Assembly (NCBI GenBank): GCA_023898465.1
Contig: CP060223.1
Coordinates: 224,001-288,000 of the forward strand
Reading direction: 5' to 3'
DNA: 64,000 bases
DNA from: Candidatus Nomurabacteria bacterium
GTDB lineage: Bacteria > Patescibacteriota > Patescibacteriia > HK-STAS-PATE-3
Part shown: positions 3,100-52,288 of the stretch, piece after piece
Position numbering within the stretch: the first letter of the stretch is position 1
Layout of the letters: each line of letters begins with the position of its first letter
The notes under the pieces: model-generated
What the model was told of the DNA's origin: nothing
The model's database searches: none
What the model saw: only the letters and a program-made list of their open reading frames with translations
Position numbers and translations under genes: made by a program

Positions 3100-3751
3100 A
3101 AAATCGCAGCACGGTTTCACAATGATTGAGCTAGTTGTCTCAATCGCAATTTTTGGCATACTCGCCGGGATTCTTGGTTGGAATTTTAGCCGCTTCCGAG
3201 AAAATGATGATTTACGTCTAGCCGCTGAACAGCTGATGACTGATCTTCGTACTGCGCAAAATACTGCCATGACCGGTCAGGTGATTGATGATCCAGGACC
3301 AGGAGATCCAGCCGTGCCAATTGGCGGCTATGGCATTCATTTTAATCTCAACATAGGCAACAACGAATATTGGATGTTTGCGGATCGAGAGAGTTACAGT
3401 GGGACAACTTGTGTTCCTGTACGCAACGAGCGCTTTGATCAATTAGTAGCCGACCCTCCGAGCACGTGTATGACTGATGGGGTGAATGATGATTTAGATG
3501 CAGCGCCTAATCCGGTACAATTACCCGGCGATGTGATTATTGAAGCCTTGCGAGTAGATGGAACACAAAGCATTACCGACGTGGCCTTTTTGCCTCCTAA
3601 ACCACTCCCTTATGTAGCTTACGGCGATCTGACAAATGCCGCCGTAGCTGGGAAAACTATTGAGATTGACCTCCGTCATACCGTGACAAACCAGCTCCGA
3701 AGGGTTACTGTAGTAGGAGCATCAGGTCAAATAAGTGTCAGCACACCATAA
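3077..3751 (+). CDS. pseudopilin / minor pilin (prepilin N-terminal motif)
   Basis: Contains HGFTMIELVVSIAIFGILAG. The start overlaps the 3' end of pilD. Confidence 0.7.
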   Translation: MSFHTSPKKSQHGFTMIELVVSIAIFGILAGILGWNFSRFRENDDLRLAAEQLMTDLRTAQNTAMTGQVIDDPGPGDPAVPIGGYGIHFNLNIGNNEYWMFADRESYSGTTCVPVRNERFDQLVADPPSTCMTDGVNDDLDAAPNPVQLPGDVIIEALRVDGTQSITDVAFLPPKPLPYVAYGDLTNAAVAGKTIEIDLRHTVTNQLRRVTVVGASGQISVSTP

Positions 3752-4342: not shown

Positions 4343-5175
4343 TGAGGTTGCGACGCTTATTGTATAAGAAAATATTTGCCCGAGAAGAAAAAGGATTCAC
4401 CTTGGTGGAAATTCTCATGGTGCTCGGCATTTTCTCAACCGCACTACTTATGGTGGTGAATATTTTTGTTACCTCGACTCGTTTGCAGCAGCGCACACTG
4501 ACTGCCCAGCGCCTGAGTGCTGATGCGCGATTTACTTTAGAGACCATGGCCCGGGCAATTCGAAGTGGTACGGTTGACTATGATTTTTATCACGCACGAA
4601 CGCCATACGTTTCAACAGAGTACGAGATGAAGATTACCGACCCTAGCTATCCTCTGCATGTGTTGTCAGTTATTGATCCGGATGGAAACCGTACGATTTT
4701 TCGCCGTCAGAGTCTGGATCCGGTAAATGACCCCTGGGGGAATGATAAGAGTGGCGGATTTGAAAAAGTTGGAGACAAGCTAGAAGTATGTTTAGAGAGC
4801 AACCTTTGTATAGATCCAACAGATTATGAGGGTTCCTCAAAAACGCTTTGCAACTCTGACAGTGAGTGCGGAGAGACTGGTGAATCTTGTTTGCTTTCCT
4901 GTAATTACCAAGGTGCTTGGAGCGACATTACTCCAGAGGGCGTCCGTTTAACCGGTGGATCACAACATCCCACCGAGCCCTATGGCTTTAAGGTAACCTT
5001 GACCCCCCCGTATAGTCCTTTCTTAATTCAGAATAATGAAACTGGCGAATATAAAGCTGATGAGCAGCCCCGGGTTTCCATACTCATGATAACCAAGGGC
5101 AATGGCAATGACCAAGATGAGCTGAAAGAAGTGAAATTACAAACAACCGTAAGTACGCGTGTGTATGGACGTTAA
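4330..5175 (+). CDS. minor pilin, PilW-like (prepilin motif KGFTLVEILMVLGIF)
   Basis: N-terminal prepilin motif. The C-terminal part is Cys-rich. Confidence 0.6.
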   Translation: MEDMMRLRRLLYKKIFAREEKGFTLVEILMVLGIFSTALLMVVNIFVTSTRLQQRTLTAQRLSADARFTLETMARAIRSGTVDYDFYHARTPYVSTEYEMKITDPSYPLHVLSVIDPDGNRTIFRRQSLDPVNDPWGNDKSGGFEKVGDKLEVCLESNLCIDPTDYEGSSKTLCNSDSECGETGESCLLSCNYQGAWSDITPEGVRLTGGSQHPTEPYGFKVTLTPPYSPFLIQNNETGEYKADEQPRVSILMITKGNGNDQDELKEVKLQTTVSTRVYGR

Positions 5176-11284: not shown

Positions 11285-11890
11285 ATGTCAGAGACACAGC
11301 CGAATTTTATCGAACGCACCGTTGTCTTGGTGAAACCAGATGGTGTGAAGCGGGGATTAGTCGGGGAAATAATTGGCCGATTTGAAAAGACCGGCTTAAA
11401 AATAGTCGGAATGAAAATGATCTGGGTTGATAAAGAGCTGGTGGCTAAGCACTACCCAGAATCACGCACCGAATTGCTGCGAGGTATCGGTGAAAAAACT
11501 TTGAAGACCTATCAAGAGTACGGCATGGATCCAAACGAGCAATTGGGAACTATGGATCCGCTGGAAATTGGTAAGATGGTGAATAACTGGAATATTGATT
11601 TCCTCACCTCAGGTCCAGTTATGGCTATGGTGCTCGAAGGTCTGCACGCCATTTCTAACGTACGACAAATAGTTGGTAATACTTTACCGGTCTTTGCTGA
11701 TCCAGGTACCATTCGTGGTGATTACTCACTGGATTCTCCGGCTATGGCCAATCAACAGAAGCGAACGGTCCGTAACCTGATTCACGCTTCAGGTAACGCT
11801 GAAGAAGCAAAGTATGAAGTTGAGCTATGGTTCCGTGAGAACGAGCTCTATACCTACAAGCGCAGCGACGAAGCGGTGATGTACGAGTAG
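11285..11890 (+). CDS. ndk: nucleoside-diphosphate kinase-like protein
   Basis: ERT(V/L)VLVKPDGV... and NLIHASG (NxIHxSD-like) motifs. It is longer than the canonical NDK because of inserted segments. Confidence 0.8.
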   Translation: MSETQPNFIERTVVLVKPDGVKRGLVGEIIGRFEKTGLKIVGMKMIWVDKELVAKHYPESRTELLRGIGEKTLKTYQEYGMDPNEQLGTMDPLEIGKMVNNWNIDFLTSGPVMAMVLEGLHAISNVRQIVGNTLPVFADPGTIRGDYSLDSPAMANQQKRTVRNLIHASGNAEEAKYEVELWFRENELYTYKRSDEAVMYE

Positions 11891-41523: not shown

Positions 41524-41598
41524 GGGTCCATAGCTCAATGGTAGAGCAACTGCCTTTTAAGCAGTGGGTTGGTGGTTCGAGCCCACCTGGACCCACCA
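41524..41598 (+). tRNA. tRNA-Lys (anticodon TTT)
   Basis: Cloverleaf: acceptor GGGTCCA/TGGACCC, D-arm GCTC-AATGGTA-GAGC, anticodon stem ACTGC/GCAGT with loop CTTTTAA, T-arm GGTGG-TTCGAGC-CCACC, encoded CCA. Confidence 0.9.
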
Positions 41599-42100
41599 GT
41601 CATATCGCGCTTTTTGCATACCCAAGAAGCGAGACCCAGCATAGCGTGGGTCTCGTGTGAGTTCAGACGCCTTTGCGGGCGTGGGGATTGTGGCGATAGA
41701 TCGCCATTCCCGGCTTTGCGGTACTGGGAACCTCGATCAGGATATCTCCGCTAGCACCGAAGACGTTTCGCGTCGTTGCCCCGAGGTCAACACGCAGGGT
41801 TGTCAGAGGCGCTGCTCCGAGCGGATCCCCGAGACAAATAATGTCTCGATCATGCAGCGTCACTCCTTGTTTGAGGCTGGCCGTATGCGTTCGTTGGAAC
41901 TGCACACTGCCGAGTACGCCAATCTTGATCCAGTCGGTCTGCGTAGCCGCTTGCGTCGACATAGTACCCCCATTCTTCCAGTGAAAGGCACGCACGGATC
42001 TCATCCTGAGAATGTGCAAATCTTGCCACGGAGTGTAGCGCTGTGGATTTTCTTTGTCAAGCAAAACGGACACACTCAAGTGAGGTGTCCGTAGTTGGGG

Positions 42101-42898
42101 TTAGTTGACGGAGGCGATCTCTTCATCAGGGATTGCGGCTATCAAGCGTCCGAGCGCCTTTTGCAGCGAAAGATTAGAGCGGGCTAAGCGTTCATCATAT
42201 CGGAAGAAGTGAAAGGGGATAGCAGAGGGGTCGGTCAACGCCATTTGTCCAAGCGCTCCAAGCTGCTGGAATACTGCCCCAAGATCGAGTTCGAGGTCGA
42301 ACAGGAGCTCCCAATCAATGCAAGATCGAAGCGCTTCCCAGGGTAGTGGCTCTTCCATGCAGCATGAGCGCCCGGCCAGCATTCTGACAAAGTGGCAGAG
42401 CCCAGGGTTGAAGAAGCTTTTTCTCCTTTGATCAGTCAGCAAGGTGCTTCTTGGGTCAAAGGGGTACACGGTGTCGTCCTCTCCCTGCATGAGCCATCCC
42501 TTGAGCAGCTCAAGATCAACCACGCTGGTGACCAAATCTTGGGTGGCGAGGGCCTTGCGATCAAAGCTCACGATGTCGCCCCAGGGGATCGGCAGACAGA
42601 TTGAGGCAACAAGTTCCACCCAAGCACCTAGTGTGTCTTGGCGATCCTCTGGGACAACCAAGAGAAAAGAATCAAGAGTTCTGGGAAGTGCCATAGCACC
42701 AAGGGCGGAGAGAAAGTTCCCGGCTTTTTTTCCTACAGCGTCGATGATGAGGCTTCGTATAGGCTCACCATCAGTATCTTCCAAGATGCTTTGAGAATCC
42801 TCAAGACTTGAGCAGACGGTGATGGTGTGGCAGTTGATCCGAGCTGCCAAATGGCGGGCTCGTTTCTGACTACCAGAAAAAACCAAGAGGTGTGCCAT
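42101..42898 (-). CDS. hypothetical protein (G+C-rich island gene)
   Basis: 265-aa ORF whose G+C-rich codon usage matches the island. No family recognised. Confidence 0.45.
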   Translation of the reverse strand: MAHLLVFSGSQKRARHLAARINCHTITVCSSLEDSQSILEDTDGEPIRSLIIDAVGKKAGNFLSALGAMALPRTLDSFLLVVPEDRQDTLGAWVELVASICLPIPWGDIVSFDRKALATQDLVTSVVDLELLKGWLMQGEDDTVYPFDPRSTLLTDQRRKSFFNPGLCHFVRMLAGRSCCMEEPLPWEALRSCIDWELLFDLELDLGAVFQQLGALGQMALTDPSAIPFHFFRYDERLARSNLSLQKALGRLIAAIPDEEIASVN

Positions 42899-42972: not shown

Positions 42973-43391
42973 TACTTGACAACCCACTTCACAGGAGTAC
43001 ACTAAATGCACAATTGGTGGCGATCTCTGCCTGGCACTGACCAGGTTGTCCGGAGACGCCATGTTTTTGTATGCGCGTGTTCTTCCTCCTTGCCGCAGGG
43101 TGTAGCTCGGCTCCGCTCGCTACCCATTTCTCGGCATCGGTCTCTTTGCGATGATCGAAACGAAGAGCGTCTTTTTCTACTCTCCTGCAGGGGCGGTGCG
43201 GGAGCGCGGAATAGTTCCGGGCTTCATTTCCTCACATGAGGAAAGCGGCTTTGTTGCCGTTTTGCACCTTGAAATGCATGGAGGTTCGCCATGACTTGGC
43301 GTTTCCGACTCTTCCTGCTCATGGCCATCGCGTTGACCATGACACCCCTCGCTTTCATGACCGGCTGCCAGGAGCTGCCGACGGAGGGGGA
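42973..43391 (+). repeat. direct repeat copy A: promoter + 5' leader + signal-peptide cassette (partner at 46570..46894)
   Basis: Near-identical to copy B apart from one insertion of about 94 nt and scattered substitutions. It spans TTGACA through the first about 34 codons of the lipoprotein gene. Confidence 0.85.
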
Positions 43392-44028
43392 TTCACAGGA
43401 TCAAGTGGTTGAGAGTCCGGAAGCTCAACCCGGTCCAGCGATTCAGTCTACTGGGCCCGAATGGTATAATCAGGTCGTAAGTGAAGCAAAGTACACATTG
43501 TGCCAGCTTCGAAACGGCACATCGCATGAGGTCTATCAGGGTAAGGCTATGGGTGATTGGCCCTACCCACATCAAGGGGATTGTTGTAACGCCCTTGGTG
43601 TAGTCCGTCAATATATGTACGGTGGTGGCTCTCCAGGACCGCTTGGCGAATGGAATGGCTTCCAGCAAGGCGGTTGGTGCAAGTTCTTTGTCAACTTGGT
43701 GCTCTACCGCTCTAGCTATGGCTACCCGGGCGGACATTTGCTCTTGCCCACTTCTACGTATCGTTACAATAATCCACGCCCGGTTTCCGAAGCACAACCT
43801 GGATGGATCTTGCAGTCAGAAACACTACCTCATACTGCGATCGTAGTAGAACGACTAGGCGGTGGCTTGGATGTAATCGATTCAAACTGGATCGGAACTT
43901 ACAAGCGTCCGGACGGAAGTTATTACTACTCATATGCCATCGCAAGGCATGAAATCACAAATACGGAGTTGGATCGCTACGATTTCATGGCATATCGTCC
44001 GCATGAGGCGTGCGTGCTGCATAACTAG
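43291..44028 (+). CDS. lipoprotein with CHAP-like (cysteine, histidine-dependent amidohydrolase/peptidase) domain
   Basis: Signal peptide plus lipobox LAFMTG|C. QGDCCNALGVVRQY (Cys motif) and LPHTAIVVERLGGGLDVIDSNW (His motif) resemble the CHAP catalytic dyad. Confidence 0.55.
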   Translation: MTWRFRLFLLMAIALTMTPLAFMTGCQELPTEGDSQDQVVESPEAQPGPAIQSTGPEWYNQVVSEAKYTLCQLRNGTSHEVYQGKAMGDWPYPHQGDCCNALGVVRQYMYGGGSPGPLGEWNGFQQGGWCKFFVNLVLYRSSYGYPGGHLLLPTSTYRYNNPRPVSEAQPGWILQSETLPHTAIVVERLGGGLDVIDSNWIGTYKRPDGSYYYSYAIARHEITNTELDRYDFMAYRPHEACVLHN

Positions 44029-44101
44029 ATAGTGGGGGGTGCTGGAAAGTTTTTCAGTTCCCCCCACCTCCCACAAAGTCAATTATTTACTTCATAAGTA
44101 T

Positions 44102-44617
44102 ATGAAAAAAATCCAAATAGTCTTTCTCTTATTTTCAAGCATTGTTCTTGCGTCGGTGATTTTTTATTCCGGACATGCTATTTCATATAAAAATACAACC
44201 TACGGATATTCTTTTAGTACAATAAAAAAGTCTAATATTAAAGTTCTTGATCCAGCGCTTGTTCAAGTTTCAATTATAGGAGAAGAGGTTATTGAGGAGA
44301 GTCCAATAATAAACATATATGCTATTAAGTTGGAGCAAGATTCTTTGTCTGCAACCCAAGAACTTGAAACGTGGGTAGGGGAAGATCTTAATGGTTTCTC
44401 TGATATTAATATTCAGAGTACAACGACCGAAACAGAAAAAATAATTAACGTTACTTATACGGGAGGGGGGATGTCTGGAAGTATTAAATACGTCGGATTT
44501 TATGTTTTCAATCAGGAAGAAAAAACAATAATTAAGGTAGTAGCTTCTCAGTATAATGATAATATGGAATTGTTTGAGGCCTACAAAAAAATTCTTTCTT
44601 CCTTTCAGTTAATATAA
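44102..44617 (+). CDS. hypothetical membrane-anchored protein (AT-rich insert within the island)
   Basis: MKKIQIVFLLFSSIVLASVIFYSGH N-terminal anchor. 171 aa. Confidence 0.45.
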   Translation: MKKIQIVFLLFSSIVLASVIFYSGHAISYKNTTYGYSFSTIKKSNIKVLDPALVQVSIIGEEVIEESPIINIYAIKLEQDSLSATQELETWVGEDLNGFSDINIQSTTTETEKIINVTYTGGGMSGSIKYVGFYVFNQEEKTIIKVVASQYNDNMELFEAYKKILSSFQLI

Positions 44618-45255
44618 TGACCACCACTCATCGTCTCCTCATATTACTCATTGTCGTAGTTGCCGCAGGCTTTCTCTATCTTGGATTAAGATCAGATTCC
44701 TCCGATGTAACAACGACGAACAAAACAGTCAACAAAGATTTCCGTGAACTTGAAATGCTCAGTTCAGCTGGTCACAAGGTGTTTCAATCAGAGAATTATG
44801 ATTTCACCTATACGATTGATCATGGTGTTGACTGGAGCGTTAGCGAGGCTGCAGAGCCGACTTTGCTCACCACTTGGTTTTCTTTACCAAATCCAAATAG
44901 TGAAGAGGAAGAAAGAGATGATATTCCGAATGGGTTTAATACCTTTGAAAAAAATAGTTTTCGACTTGATGTATATCCTAACTCAGGTTCAGTAAGTCCA
45001 AATGGAGAAGCGGAGCTAAAAGATTGGTTAAAAAATGATCTTAATAGTGAGTATATTCCTGGAAGCTTTTTAACCTTATCCATTGCAAGAAACCGTTTAT
45101 TCAAAGTAGTTGATTTTCAGGGGATTGATGTGCGAGAGGCGCATTATTATCTATTTGGCTCTGCATTTGTATATGTCTTTTCAAGCGGTGATTTCACTGA
45201 GCAAGAAATGCGCGAGTTTATTAGCGGTTTTACCTACGAAAGAGCGCCTTTATAA
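44617..45255 (+). CDS. hypothetical membrane-anchored protein (AT-rich)
   Basis: Start overlaps the upstream stop (TAATG). N-terminal TM anchor. 212 aa. Confidence 0.45.
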   Translation: MTTTHRLLILLIVVVAAGFLYLGLRSDSSDVTTTNKTVNKDFRELEMLSSAGHKVFQSENYDFTYTIDHGVDWSVSEAAEPTLLTTWFSLPNPNSEEEERDDIPNGFNTFEKNSFRLDVYPNSGSVSPNGEAELKDWLKNDLNSEYIPGSFLTLSIARNRLFKVVDFQGIDVREAHYYLFGSAFVYVFSSGDFTEQEMREFISGFTYERAPL

Positions 45256-45462
45256 GCGCTTCATCTCATCTTTATTTCTTTACTTGACGCATCTCAGTAG
45301 TCCGAGCATAATCATTTTTGGGTAGTAACCCACGTTTTGATAAGCAGGAGAAGTACGGTAGATTCGATGGATGCGCCATGCGCACCCCATCTGCGTTGGA
45401 TTGTCACACTGAACCTCGGGTCAGGATAGCACCCTGACAAATCTGGAAAGAAAGGAGGCGTC

Positions 45463-46470
45463 ATGAACCGCCTGTTTGTCGTACTCGCGCTGATCACCAT
45501 CGGGGCTCTGGGTTTTGTTGGCTGCGGCGGTAAGGACGCCGCTACGAAGCCGGAAGAAATCCGCAGTCCAGATCAGATCGTGCAGTCTGAGATTGTCTAT
45601 ACCGTGAACCCAGACTACTCAGGGGTGAATGTTTCGTGGAAAACAAACATCCCGACAGTTGGAAGGGTGTACTATGGTAGGACTCCTCAACCAACTGACT
45701 ACGTCATCGAGGAGGTGAGCACTACTCAACATTTGTTGTGTGCACCTCGACTCAGGGGAGATGCGCTCTTCTACTTCCAAGTGCAATCATCCTTTTCCGA
45801 GGAAGTGATTAGCGCTCGGGAACCGAGCGAAGGCGATACACTTCGCACCCCACGATGGGTTGATTGGTCTCCACCTACCGTAAGATGGGTCGATCCTCGA
45901 GAAGGCGCAATAAAGGGCGGGACGATTGATCTCACTGTTTCGGCAAACGAATACGTTGTCAACGGGGTGGTAGAGGTGAAATTCTTTATCGATGGCAGGG
46001 TCATCGCTGTAGTGACTGAACCCGATGACGGTGATAAGATCTTCGTCGTGCATGACTTCAATACTACCCAGCTCACCGATGGCTTGCATAGCTTTCACGC
46101 GTTGGCAACAGATGTAAACGGTAACAGAGAGTCAAGGGGAATTACGGTCGACATCGACAACTCGAAGCCGGTCATCTATCGATGGGATGCTCCGAGAAAT
46201 CAGCGGGAGATCGGGAATTCTATCAATTTGCGAGTGGTGGCTCAGGACTTTCGTGGTGAACACGTCGATGATGTGTACATCACCCTCGATGGTCAACCAT
46301 TTGCGAGGCTTGAGGTGTGTGAACTGCGAGCTAGCGGCGTAGGAGATGTGTGGTGTAGAGACGTTGATACGTCGACGCTGTCACCCGGTCAGCACTACTT
46401 CGGTGCCGTTTCAGTAGATCATGCTGGCAACGAGTCAGATCCGGTCTACATCGGCGTCATCAAGCAGTAG
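45463..46470 (+). CDS. lipoprotein with Ig-like/FN3-like beta-sandwich repeats (G+C-rich)
   Basis: Lipobox LGFVG|C. Repeated beta-strand-rich segments (VNVSWKTN...VYYGRTPQ, IDLTVSANE..., FHALATDVNGN..., FGAVSVDHAGNES) typical of Big/FN3 folds. Confidence 0.5.
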   Translation: MNRLFVVLALITIGALGFVGCGGKDAATKPEEIRSPDQIVQSEIVYTVNPDYSGVNVSWKTNIPTVGRVYYGRTPQPTDYVIEEVSTTQHLLCAPRLRGDALFYFQVQSSFSEEVISAREPSEGDTLRTPRWVDWSPPTVRWVDPREGAIKGGTIDLTVSANEYVVNGVVEVKFFIDGRVIAVVTEPDDGDKIFVVHDFNTTQLTDGLHSFHALATDVNGNRESRGITVDIDNSKPVIYRWDAPRNQREIGNSINLRVVAQDFRGEHVDDVYITLDGQPFARLEVCELRASGVGDVWCRDVDTSTLSPGQHYFGAVSVDHAGNESDPVYIGVIKQ

Positions 46471-46569: not shown

Positions 46570-46894
46570 TACTTGACAACCCACTTCACAGGAGTACACT
46601 AAATGCACAATTGGTGGCGATCTCTGCCTGGCACTGACCAGGATGTCTGGAGACGCCATGTTTTTGTATAGGCGTATTCCACCCTCCCTTGCCGTGGCGT
46701 TGGGGAGCGCGGAATAGTTCCGGGCTTCATTTCCTCACATGAGGAAAGCGGCTTTGTTGCCGTTTTGCACTTTGAAATGCATGGAGGTTCGCCATGACTT
46801 GGCGTTTCCGACTCTTCCTGCTCATGGCCATCGCGTTGACCATGACACCCCTCGCTTTCATGACCGGCTGTCAGGAGCTGCCGACGGAGGGGGA
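46570..46894 (+). repeat. direct repeat copy B of the promoter/leader/signal-peptide cassette
   Basis: See copy A. This copy lacks the segment of about 94 nt. Confidence 0.85.
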
Positions 46895-47492
46895 GACTTC
46901 GGTGATCTCTGATGAGTTGCCGGATGCTTCACCCTCAGCTCAGTCAAGCCCGATGACTTGGCCCTCTTCGATCCAGGATTTCAAACTCCCTTATGATGGG
47001 ATCCGGGATGCATGCGGGGGTCAGATTTGGAAGGTTGTTTGCGGGTACGGATGTGGTTATCATCACAACACAAACTACATGGCCGCCGCGTACCATTCGA
47101 TTGATCTTGTACGGCAGGATGCGCCGACCACTCATAGCGCAGTACTCGCTCCGGCGCGTGGCATCGTTTCGTTTGTCGGATGGAGGAATGGGTACGGTTG
47201 GTGCGTGGAGATGGATCATCGAAACGGCTGGAAGTCGCTTGTGGCCCATCTCGAAACGGATCCTTGGGAATTCGTCCATACCTATGACGACCTGCGGCAG
47301 GGGACTTTCCTGGGCTATGCAGGGAACAGCGGAGCGAGTACGACACCCCACATTCACTTCTCGGTGTGGCGGAACAACGTCACTCATACGCTCGATGGCG
47401 TATCGTTGATCAACCCGCGTCTAAATGGGCGATACAATTCCGGCAATGATTATGTTGCGCCACCGACGGGAAATCCGAACCCGATTCCTTAA
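46794..47492 (+). CDS. lipoprotein peptidase M23 family (LytM/lysostaphin-like peptidoglycan endopeptidase)
   Basis: Identical signal peptide and lipobox to the 43291 gene. HSIDLV (HxxxD) and TPHIHFSVW (HxH) are M23 zinc ligand motifs. Confidence 0.7.
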   Translation: MTWRFRLFLLMAIALTMTPLAFMTGCQELPTEGETSVISDELPDASPSAQSSPMTWPSSIQDFKLPYDGIRDACGGQIWKVVCGYGCGYHHNTNYMAAAYHSIDLVRQDAPTTHSAVLAPARGIVSFVGWRNGYGWCVEMDHRNGWKSLVAHLETDPWEFVHTYDDLRQGTFLGYAGNSGASTTPHIHFSVWRNNVTHTLDGVSLINPRLNGRYNSGNDYVAPPTGNPNPIP

Positions 47493-47668: not shown

Positions 47669-48682
47669 ATGAATCGTTTTTCTATCTTCATCGCAGTGTT
47701 CGTTCTTATCAGCGCAGTGGTTTATGCTTTCTTTTTTGCTACATTATTTGGGGAAAAGAAAGCTATTGAAGGAGTGCAGGGACCTGCTTTTATGTTTGCA
47801 ACCCTGCCTGACTCAGATGCATCTGCCGCGATAAGCATTTTTGAGATTCCTACAATGTCGAAGCGAAAGGCTGAAGACACATCTTTGCCAATGCATTTTC
47901 TTAAAAAACTAGGAGATCCGAGAGAGTATTTTGATCCCATACTTTCTTCAAGTGGTGCATATTTGGCTTTTAATCGTAATATTGGGGAGCCGAAACAGGA
48001 TAAGACAAATTTAGTAATACTTGCAGCTGACGGAAAAGAAAGGAGCGTGGAGAGCGGCTCTGCTGGAGATATAGGAATAGGAATGCTCACGCCCTTGCAG
48101 TGGAGTGCTGATGAAAAAACGCTCTACGCTTTTTATACACACGCAACTGAAGGTAATATCGTAGGCCTGGTGGCAATTGATGTGGCAACTTTAAGCCAAC
48201 AACGAATTGAAAAAATTGATGATCTACGTGTAAGTAACTACGTCTTTGATGAAGTCGGAAATACCTACGGTTTTGAACCGCACTATCGATTCCGCCCTGA
48301 AGACGAGGCTCAAACAACCTTTTATCGAATTTCTTTGACTAGTGGCGAAACAAAAAGCTTTACACTCCAGCAATCGAGTTTGGACGATCTCTTGACCGTA
48401 GATCCAAGCGGGAGATACCTCGTGTACGCAAACGGAGATGATTTTAATTCTCGTAACATTTGGATGTATGACATGGAAACCGGTGAGGAGCGCGCGTTGA
48501 CTGAAAATGCTGTTGTTAATGAAATTTTGCCCTGGAAAGATGGATATTTGGTATTTCTGGAGGAAAGTGTAAACACCCCCGCAGAAAAAACACTTGTATC
48601 ATACGATGTAAATTCTGGCATTCGCAAAGTTCTTTTAGAAAATGTTACAGGGACGTTCCGGCTTCTTGGTTGGTATCCCTAA
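47669..48682 (+). CDS. membrane-anchored PD40/TolB-like beta-propeller protein (paralog-type of 20627..21961)
   Basis: N-terminal TM helix. WSADEKTLYAF and DPSGRYLVYANGDD blades. Confidence 0.5.
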   Translation: MNRFSIFIAVFVLISAVVYAFFFATLFGEKKAIEGVQGPAFMFATLPDSDASAAISIFEIPTMSKRKAEDTSLPMHFLKKLGDPREYFDPILSSSGAYLAFNRNIGEPKQDKTNLVILAADGKERSVESGSAGDIGIGMLTPLQWSADEKTLYAFYTHATEGNIVGLVAIDVATLSQQRIEKIDDLRVSNYVFDEVGNTYGFEPHYRFRPEDEAQTTFYRISLTSGETKSFTLQQSSLDDLLTVDPSGRYLVYANGDDFNSRNIWMYDMETGEERALTENAVVNEILPWKDGYLVFLEESVNTPAEKTLVSYDVNSGIRKVLLENVTGTFRLLGWYP

Positions 48683-48940: not shown

Positions 48941-49600
48941 ATGTTAGGTTATCTTTTGCTCATTATATCGGTTGTAGAGTTTTTTATTGGCCTGTACCTT
49001 ATTTTTCGCTATGAAAAAAGCCAGGCAACAACATATTACGGTCTCTTTGCAATAAGTGTTGCGATCTATGTTGCCGCGAACGGTTTCGGATTTACCCGAG
49101 CTTCTGATAACGAGTTTATTTTTGAGCAACTTGCTTGGTTTGGCGGCTTACTTAGCGCCCCATTTATCCTTGGCTTCAGTTATAGCTTTCCTAGCCCTAA
49201 AAAATATCCCACTGAGCTATTTCCGTGGGTAATTTGGCCAGTAGTGTTATTTGGCGCAGGAATTTTTACTTCAAATATTTTCCTGGAGAAAACGTATATT
49301 TATTCCTTTGCCGAAGGCTACACTGCGCCAATCGGTGTCTTTTTCTGGTTCGCCATTGCAGTATTTGCGATGTATTGGATATGGGCAATACGAAACCTGC
49401 TGTATACGAGATTGCACACAAGCGGTTTTTATAGGAATTTTCTTACCATTGTGCTCATAGGGCTTTTTTCATCACTGCTTATTTCAGCAATTTTTGATAT
49501 TTACATTCCCTTAGTTTCAGTCACGCGCTACGGATATATTGGAGCATTATTCTCGTCTATTTGGCTGTTTACTACCGCGTATTTAATGGTGAGGAAGTAA
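48941..49600 (+). CDS. standalone 7TM membrane protein, paralog 1 (homologous to the HisKA_7TM-type N-terminal sensor module of the downstream histidine kinase)
   Basis: 219 aa, about 7 hydrophobic helices. Conserved blocks (N/R)xFLxIxLIGLxxSLL(I/V)S and GY(I/M)G(A/P)L(F/A)SSIWLF...YL(M/I)(V/L)RK are shared with the other paralogs and with HK residues about 190-230. Confidence 0.7.
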   Translation: MLGYLLLIISVVEFFIGLYLIFRYEKSQATTYYGLFAISVAIYVAANGFGFTRASDNEFIFEQLAWFGGLLSAPFILGFSYSFPSPKKYPTELFPWVIWPVVLFGAGIFTSNIFLEKTYIYSFAEGYTAPIGVFFWFAIAVFAMYWIWAIRNLLYTRLHTSGFYRNFLTIVLIGLFSSLLISAIFDIYIPLVSVTRYGYIGALFSSIWLFTTAYLMVRK

Positions 49601-49601
49601 G

Positions 49602-50261
49602 ATGATTGGATATATATTACTCATTATCTCAGTTGTTGAAGTAATACTCGGTTTTTATTTGATTTTTCGATATGTAAAAAGTCCAGCAACTATATATTAC
49701 GGCCTATTCGCGCTAAGTGTAGCACTCTATGTAGGTGCAAACGGGTATGGTTTTAGTCCGTTTTCAGAAAATGATATATGGCTGGAAATAATTGCCTGGA
49801 TTGGCGGGACCTTTACCGCTCCTTTTATTCTTGGCTTCAGTTACTCATTCCCTTATCCACGTAAGTCCAATAAGGAAATACTGTCTTTAGTTCTTAGTCC
49901 ACTCGTTTTTTTCTTCGTCGTAATACTTTTTTCTAATACTTTTGTAGATCATAATAGTGTTATCAGCTTTGATGAAGGATTTCAAAGACCTGTCGGGGAG
50001 TTACACTGGTTTGTATTATCAGTATTCTTTTTCTATTGGGTTTGGTCTTTTATTGAACTAGTAAAGAGTCGAAAAAAATCCGACGGCTTTAATAAGAATT
50101 TTCTTCTTATTTTAATTATAGGCTTAGTTTTTTCTTTGTTGGTTTCGGTATTTACTAACATCATTCATCCACTTGTCGATGTTTCAAAGTTAGGTTATAT
50201 GGGCCCCTTAGCCTCTTCAATCTGGCTATTTATTACTGGGTACTTGATATTGAGGAAGTAA
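49602..50261 (+). CDS. standalone 7TM sensor-module paralog 2
   Basis: 219 aa. Starts 1 nt after the paralog 1 stop, with an RBS aggaag. About 60% identical to paralog 1 by eye. Confidence 0.7.
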   Translation: MIGYILLIISVVEVILGFYLIFRYVKSPATIYYGLFALSVALYVGANGYGFSPFSENDIWLEIIAWIGGTFTAPFILGFSYSFPYPRKSNKEILSLVLSPLVFFFVVILFSNTFVDHNSVISFDEGFQRPVGELHWFVLSVFFFYWVWSFIELVKSRKKSDGFNKNFLLILIIGLVFSLLVSVFTNIIHPLVDVSKLGYMGPLASSIWLFITGYLILRK

Positions 50262-50932
50262 TGAACACCTTTCATTTAGTTTTACTTTTTACACTTTTCT
50301 TTATTCACGCGACTCTCGCAATATGGATGTTGCGTAGATATGTGCAGACGCTATCCATTCGTTATTACTCAGGCTTTTTATTTGGACTAGCACTTATTGC
50401 ACTATTAAATGGTTTATTGCTGTTATTTGGCGGTCAGGAGAGTCAAACAGTCCTTCATAAGATCGGCTTTATCTCAGGCACCTTCACTTTTGTGATGTTC
50501 TTTATGTTTAGTAAGTACTTTCCAATTTCTACTGCAAGACCAAACTCCCGCGACATTCTTTTTTGGGTAATTCCGATTACATTTTTTATTCCATTCATAC
50601 TTTTTAATCAGCAGTTTATCCAGTCTGTGATTATAGAAAATGGAATAAGTAAGCCTACATTTGGAGTCTGGTATACACCATTTATGTTAGTTTTGGCCAC
50701 CTTTGTTCTGGGGGCTATCTATAATCTCATACAGAAATATAAAATAACCACTGAACTTGAAATTAGGAAGAACATTAGAGACATTACGGCAGTATTTTTC
50801 GTATCAGGACTCCTTGGCTTTTTGTTGGACGTTGTGTTGCCAAGGTTTAATGTTTATACGGCACATTACTTTGCCATTGAATCTTCACTTTTTGTTGCGC
50901 TAACTACTGCAATTATTATTGCAAAGAAGTAA
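50261..50932 (+). CDS. standalone 7TM sensor-module paralog 3 (divergent)
   Basis: 223 aa. TAATG stop/start overlap with paralog 2. Confidence 0.65.
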   Translation: MNTFHLVLLFTLFFIHATLAIWMLRRYVQTLSIRYYSGFLFGLALIALLNGLLLLFGGQESQTVLHKIGFISGTFTFVMFFMFSKYFPISTARPNSRDILFWVIPITFFIPFILFNQQFIQSVIIENGISKPTFGVWYTPFMLVLATFVLGAIYNLIQKYKITTELEIRKNIRDITAVFFVSGLLGFLLDVVLPRFNVYTAHYFAIESSLFVALTTAIIIAKK

Positions 50933-50933
50933 G

Positions 50934-51605
50934 ATGAAAGAGTTTCTCATCATTGCAAATTATCTGGTTGGAATAGGGGAGTTGATGCTCGCTGGATATT
51001 TTTGGAAAACAAACAGCGGCAGCGCAATTCGGAAGGTGATGGTGTTGTTGGCGTTTTCGACTGGTATGTGGGTCATTTTTACCGGAACCTTTACCTACCG
51101 CTGGATTTTGCTTGATTACTTTGATCTCGGCATATCATTTGTATATTTCTTTGGAATTTTGTTCCTTACCGCCTTACTTCATTTAGTAATTCTCTTTCCT
51201 CACAAGATTTTCCCGTTTGATAGGCTACATACAGTTTTGTTGTATATTCCAACACTCATATTAGGTTTTGCCGCTTTTACTCCAGCGATAATTAAAGAAA
51301 ATATCACTCCGTCGAGCGGGTATACCACAAGTTATCCCGGACCAGCACATTGGATGTTTAATAGCTATCTTTTTCTCATGTATGCAATGGTGATAATCCT
51401 ACTCATTGTTAAGATCAAGCGTTTTGATGGATTTAGCAGAGATAACGCAAAAACTTTGCTTTGGGGTATTATTTTAGGCGGCCTACCCATCGTTTTCTTA
51501 GATTTGGTTTTGACAACTTTGGGCATCTACCCAAATGCTGCCGTTGCCAGCCTTTTCACAGTTGTCTGGCTTGGGTTTACTACTTACATAATTGTACGGA
51601 AATGA
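50934..51605 (+). CDS. standalone 7TM sensor-module paralog 4 (divergent)
   Basis: ATG 50934 lies 1 nt after the paralog 3 stop. The track ORF at 50919 uses an upstream TTG. C-terminus ...YIIVRK. Confidence 0.65.
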   Translation: MKEFLIIANYLVGIGELMLAGYFWKTNSGSAIRKVMVLLAFSTGMWVIFTGTFTYRWILLDYFDLGISFVYFFGILFLTALLHLVILFPHKIFPFDRLHTVLLYIPTLILGFAAFTPAIIKENITPSSGYTTSYPGPAHWMFNSYLFLMYAMVIILLIVKIKRFDGFSRDNAKTLLWGIILGGLPIVFLDLVLTTLGIYPNAAVASLFTVVWLGFTTYIIVRK

Positions 51606-52288
51606 ACGGAGAAATAGTATTTTTTGATTTAATTTTACTTAGCGTTGTTGGATTATTAGAATTAGCCTTTGGGATTTATTTAATAGTCCGTTATGTGAGG
51701 ACAAGTTCGATAGTATTTTTTGCACTTTTCGTTTTCTTTCTTTCTTTGTGGGTGCTTACAAATGCGGCTGCTTTCGTAATACCAATACATAATGTCTTCT
51801 TTGATATTGATTCAAAGTTGAGTTTTGTTTTTGCAATATTACTTTTTCCAGCGCTATACTTATATGTAATTAATTTTCCCATCCCTACAATATTAATAAA
51901 TTGGCGTTTAATACTTTTTGTGTTTACTGCGCCAATACTTCTTAGTACAATGATTTTAGGGTCGGGAACGGTTGTATTTGGATTTGATAAATTGATAGAG
52001 AATCAGCCAACTATATTTGGAGAAGCTTTTTGGGCCTATTCTTTTTATATGTTGTTCATGTATGCAATTATTTTATTTGAATTAATAAGGCAGATTAATA
52101 AGTCCAAGGGTTCTCACAGATGGTATGCACAAATTTTATTTTTTGCTGTTTTCATTTCTGGCGCAATAGGGCTATTATTTAATCTTGTTCTGCCTTCGAT
52201 GTTCGATATTAGAATTGCTTATTGGATAGCCCCATCTAGTTCAATTATTTGGCTTGCTCTTGTTTGGTGGGCGACGCAGAGGAAATAA
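51602..52288 (+). CDS. standalone 7TM sensor-module paralog 5
   Basis: ATGA start/stop overlap with paralog 4. Conserved YLIVRYVRTS and C-terminal ...WWATQRK. Confidence 0.65.
   Translation: MNGEIVFFDLILLSVVGLLELAFGIYLIVRYVRTSSIVFFALFVFFLSLWVLTNAAAFVIPIHNVFFDIDSKLSFVFAILLFPALYLYVINFPIPTILINWRLILFVFTAPILLSTMILGSGTVVFGFDKLIENQPTIFGEAFWAYSFYMLFMYAIILFELIRQINKSKGSHRWYAQILFFAVFISGAIGLLFNLVLPSMFDIRIAYWIAPSSSIIWLALVWWATQRK

Follow-up and report, generated by a model that had tools for sequence, protein, structure and literature searches.

In Mycoplasma, the vsp, vlp and vsa gene families carry a conserved 5' non-coding region and a prolipoprotein signal peptide on divergent mature regions, with recombination occurring among the members. 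The cyclic di-AMP (c-di-AMP; ydaO/kimA) riboswitch forms a long structured leader before NlpC/P60-type and other wall hydrolase genes. In the erp family of Borrelia burgdorferi (ospE/ospF/elp), the promoter/operator, the leader peptide and the first mature residues are common to the members, while the remaining parts have independent origins and were joined to them by recombination (PMC10016077). Our analysis of a 64,000-nucleotide (nt) stretch of a Candidatus Nomurabacteria genome (GenBank assembly GCA_023898465.1, contig CP060223.1, positions 224,001 to 288,000 of the forward strand), hereafter called the window and numbered from its first letter, revealed a comparable 5' module, in which a promoter-like site, a long leader, a ribosome site, a lipoprotein signal and the first mature residues occur twice, ahead of two genes, A and B, that encode unrelated peptidoglycan hydrolases. 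We consider it probable, with fairly good confidence, that one such module was recently copied from one hydrolase gene to the other, giving both enzymes the same control and the same anchoring, and that this kind of sharing is recurrent in Patescibacteria.

Extent and content of the duplicated 5' module

A repeat finder (run on the 10-kb neighbourhood and on the whole 64 kb), MAFFT, nhmmer/blastn and a global alignment all identified the same two direct repeats, copy A and copy B, lying in the same orientation 3.5 kb apart (Table 1). The global alignment of the two copies contains 14 substitutions and 94 gap columns, the latter consisting of one 93-nt block present only in copy A and 1 nt. The preliminary description of this DNA had reported near-identical tracts of about 420 and 325 bp with an indel of about 94 nt, starting at a TTGACA -35 box and running into the first 34 or so codons; pairwise alignment of the two regions agreed with this description, with the similarity holding at the same coordinates and being no shorter than had been read. 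The left edge of the repeat lies 3 nt before the hexamer (42976/46573), and the right edge falls after 33 whole codons, 2 nt into codon 34; the repeat thus reaches 101 nt into both coding regions and brings along the start codon and the whole signal peptide. The repeat finder resolved the similarity into 110 nt at 95% identity (42973-43082 against 46570-46679) and 192 nt at 99% identity (43200-43391 against 46703-46894), and the 60 nt beyond either repeat end were 30-40% identical in the global alignment, which is approximately random. Substitutions were unevenly placed, with none in the first 73 nt, 12 within 43046-43196 on either side of the indel, and two in the last 192 nt, namely at 43268 in the loop of the final leader hairpin and at 43368, a synonymous TGC/TGT change in a Cys codon that constitutes the sole coding difference between the copies. 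No third copy was detected in the window by the repeat finder, nhmmer or blastn. The short repeat CCTCCTTGCCGCAGGG ... CTCTCCTGCAGGGG around the block specific to copy A suggests that B lost the block by slippage, or that A gained it by duplication or insertion; folded alone, this block was no more stable than its shuffles (z +0.16).

Table 1. Positions of the repeat, its parts and the adjoining genes in the window.
Feature	Position	Strand	Remarks
Copy A of the 5' module	42973-43391	+	419 nt, direct repeat
Copy B of the 5' module	46570-46894	+	325 nt, direct repeat
Sigma-70-like promoter, copy A	42976-43003	+	TTGACA, 16-nt spacer, TACACT; 10/12 consensus matches; predicted
Promoter-like site, copy B	46573-46600	+	Identical to A; same consensus scan
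5' leader, gene A	43010-43290	+	About 281 nt, non-coding; minimum free energy (MFE) z -3.6
5' leader, gene B	46607-46793	+	About 187 nt; MFE z -4.0
Leader segment with predicted pairing to 43287-43327 (start codon, codons 2-12)	43032-43077	+	MFE and centroid folds, both transcripts
Look-alike of the Shine-Dalgarno (SD) sequence and AUG, GGAGACGCCATG	43052-43063	+	Inside segment 43032-43077
CCUCC pentamer resembling an anti-SD sequence	43085-43089	+	Predicted partner of SD 43280-43284 in the MFE structure
A-specific insert	43087-43179	+	93 nt, missing in B; flanked by imperfect direct repeat CCTCCTTGCCGCAGGG / CTCTCCTGCAGGGG (alignments and sequence)
3' leader domain, four consecutive hairpins	43201-43278	+	43201-43225, 43227-43244, 43245-43260, 43263-43278; z -3.5; one difference between copies; also in consensus fold
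SD GGAGG and ATG, gene A	43280-43293	+	SD 43280-43284, ATG 43291-43293; from sequence
SD and ATG, gene B	46783-46787 (SD), 46794-46796 (ATG)	+	From sequence
Lipoprotein signal peptide	43291-43368	+	Codons 1-26, lipobox F-M-T-G-C; shared part runs on through mature QELPTEG
Gene A	43291-44028	+	245-residue predicted lipoprotein; NlpC/P60-CHAP-fold cysteine hydrolase domain; Patescibacteria-restricted family
Three genes between the repeats	44039-46470	+	AT-rich exported/membrane proteins 44039-44617 and 44617-45255; Big_7 immunoglobulin-domain lipoprotein 45463-46470 (open reading frames, Pfam, composition)
Gene B	46794-47492	+	232-residue predicted lipoprotein; Peptidase_M23 domain, PF01551 E 2e-18
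Beta-propeller-like exported protein	47669-48682	+	Follows the M23 gene; syntenic partner in L013, 45% identity (tblastn); weak TolB-propeller match

Transcription is predicted to start near 43010 for gene A and near 46607 for gene B, and the leader would accordingly be a long, GC-rich 5' untranslated region, its length following from the promoter found in the consensus scan. The leader is non-coding, because the length of the indel is not divisible by three and the two copies have no reading frame in common. Two candidate coding sequences within it were rejected: an open reading frame (ORF) of 77 amino acids in leader A, which the indel destroys in B, and a short ORF after the SD-AUG look-alike (MFLY...), which shows non-synonymous changes and different stops between the copies.

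The peptide common to both genes comprises 33 residues, MTWRFRLFLLMAIALTMTPLAFMTGCQELPTEG, arranged as MTWRFRLFLLMAIALTMTPLAFMTGC followed by QELPTEG, the latter forming the seven residues after the putatively lipidated Cys26. It contains the elements of a signal peptidase II substrate, with a basic n-region (MTWRFR), a hydrophobic core (LFLLMAIALTMTPLAF) and MTG-C26 at the predicted cleavage site. The Met at position -3 of the lipobox is atypical, and the G-C dipeptide is kept in at least 90% of gene A homologues. From these signals we infer that both products are lipoproteins that undergo lipid processing, which adds to the first reading of the shared N-terminus. Each hydrolase, used as a query against a database of 5.8 billion proteins, retrieved the other via the shared N-terminus with E values of about 1e-13 to 1e-14 and retrieved no third protein in this way, indicating that, at the protein level, the two copies of the module in this genome are the only ones recorded.

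Downstream of the shared segment, gene A encodes a hydrolase whose 34 homologues among 5.8 billion clusters originate from metagenomes and from metagenome-assembled genomes (MAGs) labelled Patescibacteria, Parcubacteria and Nomurabacteria. Three homologues come from MAGs labelled uncultured Gammaproteobacteria, labels that we suspect to be erroneous. The protein has the expected fold, in which an N-terminal helix bearing the nucleophile Cys packs on a beta-sheet bearing the His, and an alignment of 31 sequences shows four invariant residues, namely C130, where helix 130-141 begins, H181, where strand 181-189 begins, D197 and N199. It belonged to no Pfam family at E up to 0.1, NLPC_P60 and CHAP included, and had no match among PDB sequences at E up to 10; against NCBIfam only a 13-bit match, to TIGR02594, was obtained. 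The lack of profile membership places gene A on a distant, unclassified branch of the NlpC/P60-CHAP superfamily. The earlier label "CHAP-like" is therefore apt at the superfamily level, by virtue of the fold and the Cys-His-polar residues, and does not extend to the Pfam CHAP family as judged by profile search. The M23 assignment of gene B was borne out, with a score of 66.8 bits against PF01551 (cut-off 28.7). Matches of gene B to NCBIfam peptidoglycan hydrolase models were weak and all far under the curated cut-offs. In a six-sequence alignment inspected for the zinc and catalytic motifs HxxxD and HxH, H186-I-H188, D141-H142 and H152 are invariant, and the His of YHSID, a tentative candidate for the first His...Asp motif, is replaced by Tyr in two homologues.

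Shared 5' ends in other Patescibacteria

Loci around homologues of either protein (designated by L numbers) were each compared with themselves for internal repeats. The closest parallel was found in L008, from MAG STA_36, where 1.5 kb separates a family-A gene (MKYFWSIAPPILAVLTLGLIVLAGCS...) from an M23 gene (MKYFWSIAPPILAILTLGLIVLAGCS...) whose protein is 50% identical to the gene B product. This pair has leader and signal peptide in common over 228 nt (82% identity, rising to 88% in a core of 168 nt), and the similarity stops just past the lipobox Cys. In L045, a family-A gene and the gene of an unrelated 220-residue lipoprotein have a common leader and signal peptide (73% over 171 nt). In L046, identity between two tandem family-A paralogues is 100% over a stretch that begins about 155 nt before the coding region and ends about 220 nt inside it, beyond which it falls to 40-78%. 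The genes downstream of the two L046 paralogues contain a further 404-nt tract, at 99.5% identity and separate from the first (L046:9285-9688 and 11482-11885), so gene conversion at this locus would be mosaic and extend beyond the 5' ends. Repeats confined to the leader were observed between the family-A gene and neighbouring regions in L011, L024 and L035. In L011 the neighbour encodes a secreted protein of 140 residues, and in L024 it is a lipoprotein gene in truncated form.

No alignment is possible between modules from different genomes, whose signal peptides agree at only 7-15 of about 30 residues. High identity within genomes combined with no detectable similarity between them points to concerted evolution by gene conversion, or to repeated independent replacement of 5' ends. 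The comparison of these loci indicates that sharing of the 5' module is recurrent in this clade and not a single accident. The order of genes downstream of the M23 gene, with a beta-propeller gene followed by several HisKA_7TM genes, is kept in L013, which accords with an exchange limited to the 5' end. L043 and L044 have a family-A gene in the position that corresponds to that of the M23 gene, so the two hydrolase families appear interchangeable at the head of this cluster.

We propose that the complete 5' module, consisting of promoter, leader, ribosome site, lipoprotein signal and first mature residues, would have been copied between the two hydrolase genes by recombination, in either direction as far as signal-peptide similarity to orthologues and synteny show. 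The copying would have been non-reciprocal, through 5'-end replacement or gene conversion, and recent, because a divergence of only 1-5% remains. Both enzymes would then use the same promoter, the same leader control, and the same export and lipid anchoring, such that the cysteine hydrolase and the M23 metallopeptidase would act as a co-expressed and co-localised wall-cleaving pair. Two enzymes that coordinately cut different peptidoglycan bonds, whether of the bacterium itself or of a host, would offer a plausible advantage.

The upstream regions in other genomes have features of their own. In promoters of orthologues of both hydrolase families elsewhere in Patescibacteria, a 9-mer resembling a DnaA box, (T/G)GTGGATAA, the reverse complement of TTATCCACA, occurs 6-8 nt upstream of a TTGAC -35 element (L008:2777-2790; L014:364-380, equal to L015:1460; L018:3428-3445, equal to L019-L022; L024:10-20 and 3256-3266; L046:9855-9880) and is often preceded by the GC-rich palindrome GCCGTCGCGACGGC. 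This 9-mer, which is absent from the window module, may serve as an operator shared across a regulon of hydrolases. The family-A leader of L008 and the M23 leader of L014, from different genomes, have their first 30 or so nt in common (blastn E 2.5e-4). Some 80 nt before the start codon, both leaders of L008 also carry GGAAGGAGGTGATCCACAA (L008:2889-2907 and 4431-4449), 13 nt of which we take to be perfectly complementary to the 3' end of 16S rRNA; the element could be a stand-by or decoy ribosome site. The ATG/CTG-TTTTTC that follows it recalls GGAGACGCC-ATGTTTTTG of the window leader. A 13-mer, TTGCACCTTGAAA, present at 43260-43272 of the window, recurs in L013 (2050-2062), where it precedes the start of the closest M23 orthologue by about as much as it precedes the M23 start in the window; as a conserved leader element this match was rejected, being at chance level (E about 1) and receiving no support from the covariance model.

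Leader folding and competing explanations

The leaders of both genes fold better than dinucleotide shuffles (Table 1). The preliminary description had proposed a structured leader of about 300 nt, a length that applies to gene A and not to gene B; the structure it inferred is present by comparison with shuffles, although the opposite strand yields it as well, as described below. In the predicted folds, the first 60 or so nt of the leader would pair with the SD, the AUG and codons 2-12, and translation would thereby be gated. When the coding region was left out of the fold, the extreme 5' strand (43005-43028) paired with the SD-AUG instead, and when this strand was folded alone its partner was the SD-AUG look-alike at 43052-43063. 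The segment 43016-43028 thus has two alternative predicted partners, the look-alike or the true SD-AUG (43280-43293), and the leader offers mutually exclusive pairings around the initiation region. The duplex between leader and coding region amounted to -43.2 kcal/mol in A (rank 2 of 65 window genes), with -43 and -45 kcal/mol for the two copies (ranks 1-2), and was stronger than 96.6-98.7% of composition-matched shuffled leaders (p = 0.013-0.034; 0.034 for A), which lends modest significance at this locus to the predicted pairing with the ribosome site and the earliest codons. Opening of the initiation region was calculated to cost 13.3 kcal/mol in A and 10.1 kcal/mol in B, compared with a median of 5.5 in the 65 genes. 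Substitutions between the copies affected four paired positions of the consensus fold, each on one side only, and abolished no pair; two of the changes, GU to GC and UG to UA, move toward Watson-Crick pairing, one swaps UG for CG, and one weakens CG to UG.

Based on these folds, it is possible, and we suggest it only tentatively, that the leader gates translation by clamping the initiation region. If it does, the leader and the signal-peptide codons would form one structural unit that has to move together. A bolder extension is rather unlikely in our estimation: that leader and signal-peptide codons would constitute a self-contained RNA "expression gate", undescribed so far, which would be spread by gene conversion over exported wall enzymes and would create lineage-specific regulons for division or for attack on the host wall. 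An invertible switch was rejected, as the promoter is not flanked by the inverted repeat that leader and coding region form, and this repeat reaches only about 70% complementarity and escaped the seed-based repeat finder.

Several results weigh against the proposal of a shared, regulated 5' module, or against its regulatory part. Because the B leader folds just as well on its reverse strand (z -4.6), the structural signal lacks strand specificity. Ranks of 3 and 11 among 65 genes place occlusion of the initiation region in the upper tail, short of the extreme. The leader-coding helix in L008, L045 (the 220-residue lipoprotein gene) and L046 was not better than composition-matched shuffles, and the helix was rejected as a general feature, since a good ranking among genes in these three loci was lost against such shuffles; the two compensatory pairs found in each of L008 and L045 were likewise indistinguishable from shuffles in the two-sequence alignments. 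Against Rfam, the segment 42850-43450 produced only matches of E >= 1.4 to irrelevant families in a search extending to E of 10, with the ydaO-yuaA c-di-AMP model included and giving no match, and nhmmer/blastn detected no homologue of the leader in 42 related loci (47 loci searched overall). Promoter use and co-regulation we infer from consensus-scan predictions, which also define the RNA 5' end, and from the identity of the two sequences. Finally, the shared 5' ends could be a neutral side effect of gene conversion among neighbours, of no consequence for selection.

Further searches with the leader had similar outcomes. At gathering score, Rfam 15 returned two tRNAs only across the whole window. 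An exact 27-mer of the leader had no match in the genome and metagenome contig collections, which apparently lack the source genome, and distant blastn against phage and plasmid collections gave no match. A covariance model of the 3' hairpin domain (R1), run on 39 sources, recovered only the two window copies.

The strongest of the alternatives holds that the leader is a new cis-acting sensor RNA for hydrolase synthesis, such as a riboswitch, a thermosensor or a protein-binding leader, and that the module is kept mainly for its RNA. The c-di-AMP (ydaO) riboswitch occurs before cell-wall hydrolase genes in other phyla, and the window leader is long (187-281 nt), precedes wall hydrolases, folds better than shuffles, offers alternative partners to 43016-43028, and has a nearly invariant first 73 and last 192 nt around a variable middle. 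The near-identity of the copies, however, follows from their recent copying and by itself is no sign of selection, and the lack of any Rfam match at E up to 10, of homologues in the collections or the 47 related loci, of strand specificity in the structural signal, and of a definable conserved core resembling a ligand pocket renders this explanation unlikely. A ligand-sensing riboswitch in the strict sense appears still more doubtful.

Slightly less credible than a sensor RNA is the idea that the repeats serve as a substrate for programmed or frequent rearrangement, by which a 3.5-kb segment (gene A and three genes) would be deleted or amplified, or catalytic domains would be swapped behind one expression site ("effector diversification"). 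Two tracts of 325-419 nt at 95-99% identity in the same orientation are ample for RecA-mediated recombination, which would delete the three genes at 44039-46470, and different partner domains stand behind shared modules in different genomes; the small exported proteins beside each hydrolase could be immunity or partner proteins. We found, however, only two copies, each before a complete gene, and no silent or orphan cassettes; scans with Pfam and NCBIfam detected no recombinase family among the neighbouring ORFs at 41.6-48.7 kb, and the M23 gene resides in a conserved syntenic block, which suggests a housekeeping rather than an effector role. Of the portable cassette with recombination-driven effector diversification put forward in the preliminary description, the portable 5' module is real, as seen from the repeat and its unrelated flanks, whereas effector diversification is not shown.

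It is highly improbable that the repeat represents a small promoter-carrying mobile or repetitive element inserted before two genes. Although its edges are sharp, one of them at the promoter, and the 93-nt A insert is flanked by a short imperfect direct repeat, the unit covers 101 nt of both coding regions, start codon and signal peptide included, its ends bear neither terminal inverted repeats nor a target-site duplication, and neither a further copy in the 64 kb nor a phage or plasmid match was found. The source is a MAG (Candidatus Nomurabacteria, locus tag H6760_01260, on a contig of 1.08 Mb), and an assembly artefact, in the form of a collapsed or chimeric repeat at a contig join, is very unlikely and the least credible explanation of all. 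Against it speak the 14 substitutions and the 94-nt indel that distinguish the copies, the two uninterrupted in-frame ORFs, and the recurrence of this architecture in MAGs that were assembled independently.

Patescibacteria (the candidate phyla radiation) are ultra-small and mostly episymbiotic, and to our knowledge almost nothing has been established about their gene regulation. The hydrolases probably act in cell division or host attachment, and recombination probably keeps their genes under common control. Unrelated wall-cleaving enzymes that repeatedly acquire one promoter, leader and lipoprotein signal would provide a testable handle on co-regulation and surface targeting, and would extend concerted evolution of 5' modules beyond spirochaetes and mycoplasmas, with a candidate regulatory leader now named. 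Should the leader be inert, the locus would still be a tidy case of gene conversion, of modest interest.

Gene neighbourhood and comparison with described systems

The repeats occur in a chromosomal context, with dnaB, recR and tRNA-Lys nearby. The tRNA-Lys(UUU) gene lies at 41524-41595, and the next 500 nt (41596-42100) contain only overlapping ORFs of 138-145 amino acids on both strands, with elevated GC content and no family; a divergent ORF of 265 amino acids directly upstream of copy A (42101-42898, minus strand) has no family match either. An integrated island at this tRNA was considered and found unsupported, as the 3' end of the tRNA is not repeated and scans with Pfam and NCBIfam detected no integrase family. 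Five unannotated neighbouring ORFs at 41.6-45.3 kb belonged to no Pfam or NCBIfam family. Two of the genes between the repeats (44039-44617 and 44617-45255) have 37% GC, compared with about 52% in the flanking hydrolase genes, and no family match. In other genomes, small exported proteins with families of their own also follow family-A and M23 genes; L008:3797-4354 matches L025:1087-1665 and L003:6789-7955, and L008:5328-6534 matches L015:761-1387. Small exported proteins beside hydrolases may be partner, inhibitor or immunity proteins. From 48941 to 52288 and beyond, the window encodes at least five tandem paralogous seven-transmembrane proteins of 219-275 amino acids, which correspond to the N-terminal HisKA_7TM domain without the kinase and whose stop and start codons overlap or abut. 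Such a block is also present in L013:5682-7076, L043:12669-15374 and L044:12231-14937, follows an M23 or family-A hydrolase, and ends in a 7TM-GAF-HisKA kinase.

Narrow full-text searches of the literature on wall hydrolases of Patescibacteria returned no description of such an arrangement. Among genes of small secreted proteins, the signal-peptide region of the Hessian-fly salivary gland genes reportedly has a part in their conservation pattern. In these families of small secreted salivary gland proteins, the non-coding sequence is reported to be more conserved than the coding sequence (PMC2955719). These families are eukaryotic, contain introns and have many copies, and their diversification is tied to positive selection on effectors, which is not established for the window genes.

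For the leader, the comparison lies with RNAs that mask ribosome-binding sites, such as the thermometers of prfA and rpoH and the expression platforms of riboswitches. As in these, an upstream segment is predicted to pair with the SD, the start codon and early codons; unlike in these, no sensor domain or trigger is identified in the window leader, and its statistics are modest, with no covariation and no family match. The window leader also differs from those of the ydaO/kimA type, as it has no Rfam match at E up to 10, ydaO-yuaA included.

For the module as a whole, the Mycoplasma families are phase- or antigen-variable, depend on promoter tracts or site-specific recombinases, and encode mature domains of a repetitive kind, whereas the window has direct repeats, no recombinase family in the scanned neighbours, and enzymes as mature domains. 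The inverted repeats or silent cassettes with a recombinase that characterise a phase-variable switch are replaced here by direct repeats in front of two complete genes. In terms of architecture, the closest precedent is the Borrelia erp family. Here, as in the genes with an erp "upstream homology box", unrelated mature domains within one genome are preceded by the same promoter region, leader peptide and first mature residues, a likeness of architecture only, with no sequence kinship. The erp genes are present in many copies on cp32 prophage plasmids and encode surface proteins that bind host factors, whereas the window module has two chromosomal copies, encodes peptidoglycan hydrolases and belongs to a Patescibacterium. 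Multiple copies on prophages or plasmids, as in erp, were thus not found, the two copies lying in a chromosomal context with no phage or plasmid match. We know of no long structured 5' leader in the erp unit. The basic phenomenon therefore has precedents, and what sets the present case apart is its occurrence as two chromosomal copies with enzyme domains and a long leader, in Patescibacteria, and its recurrence in a second lineage that pairs these two enzyme families again.

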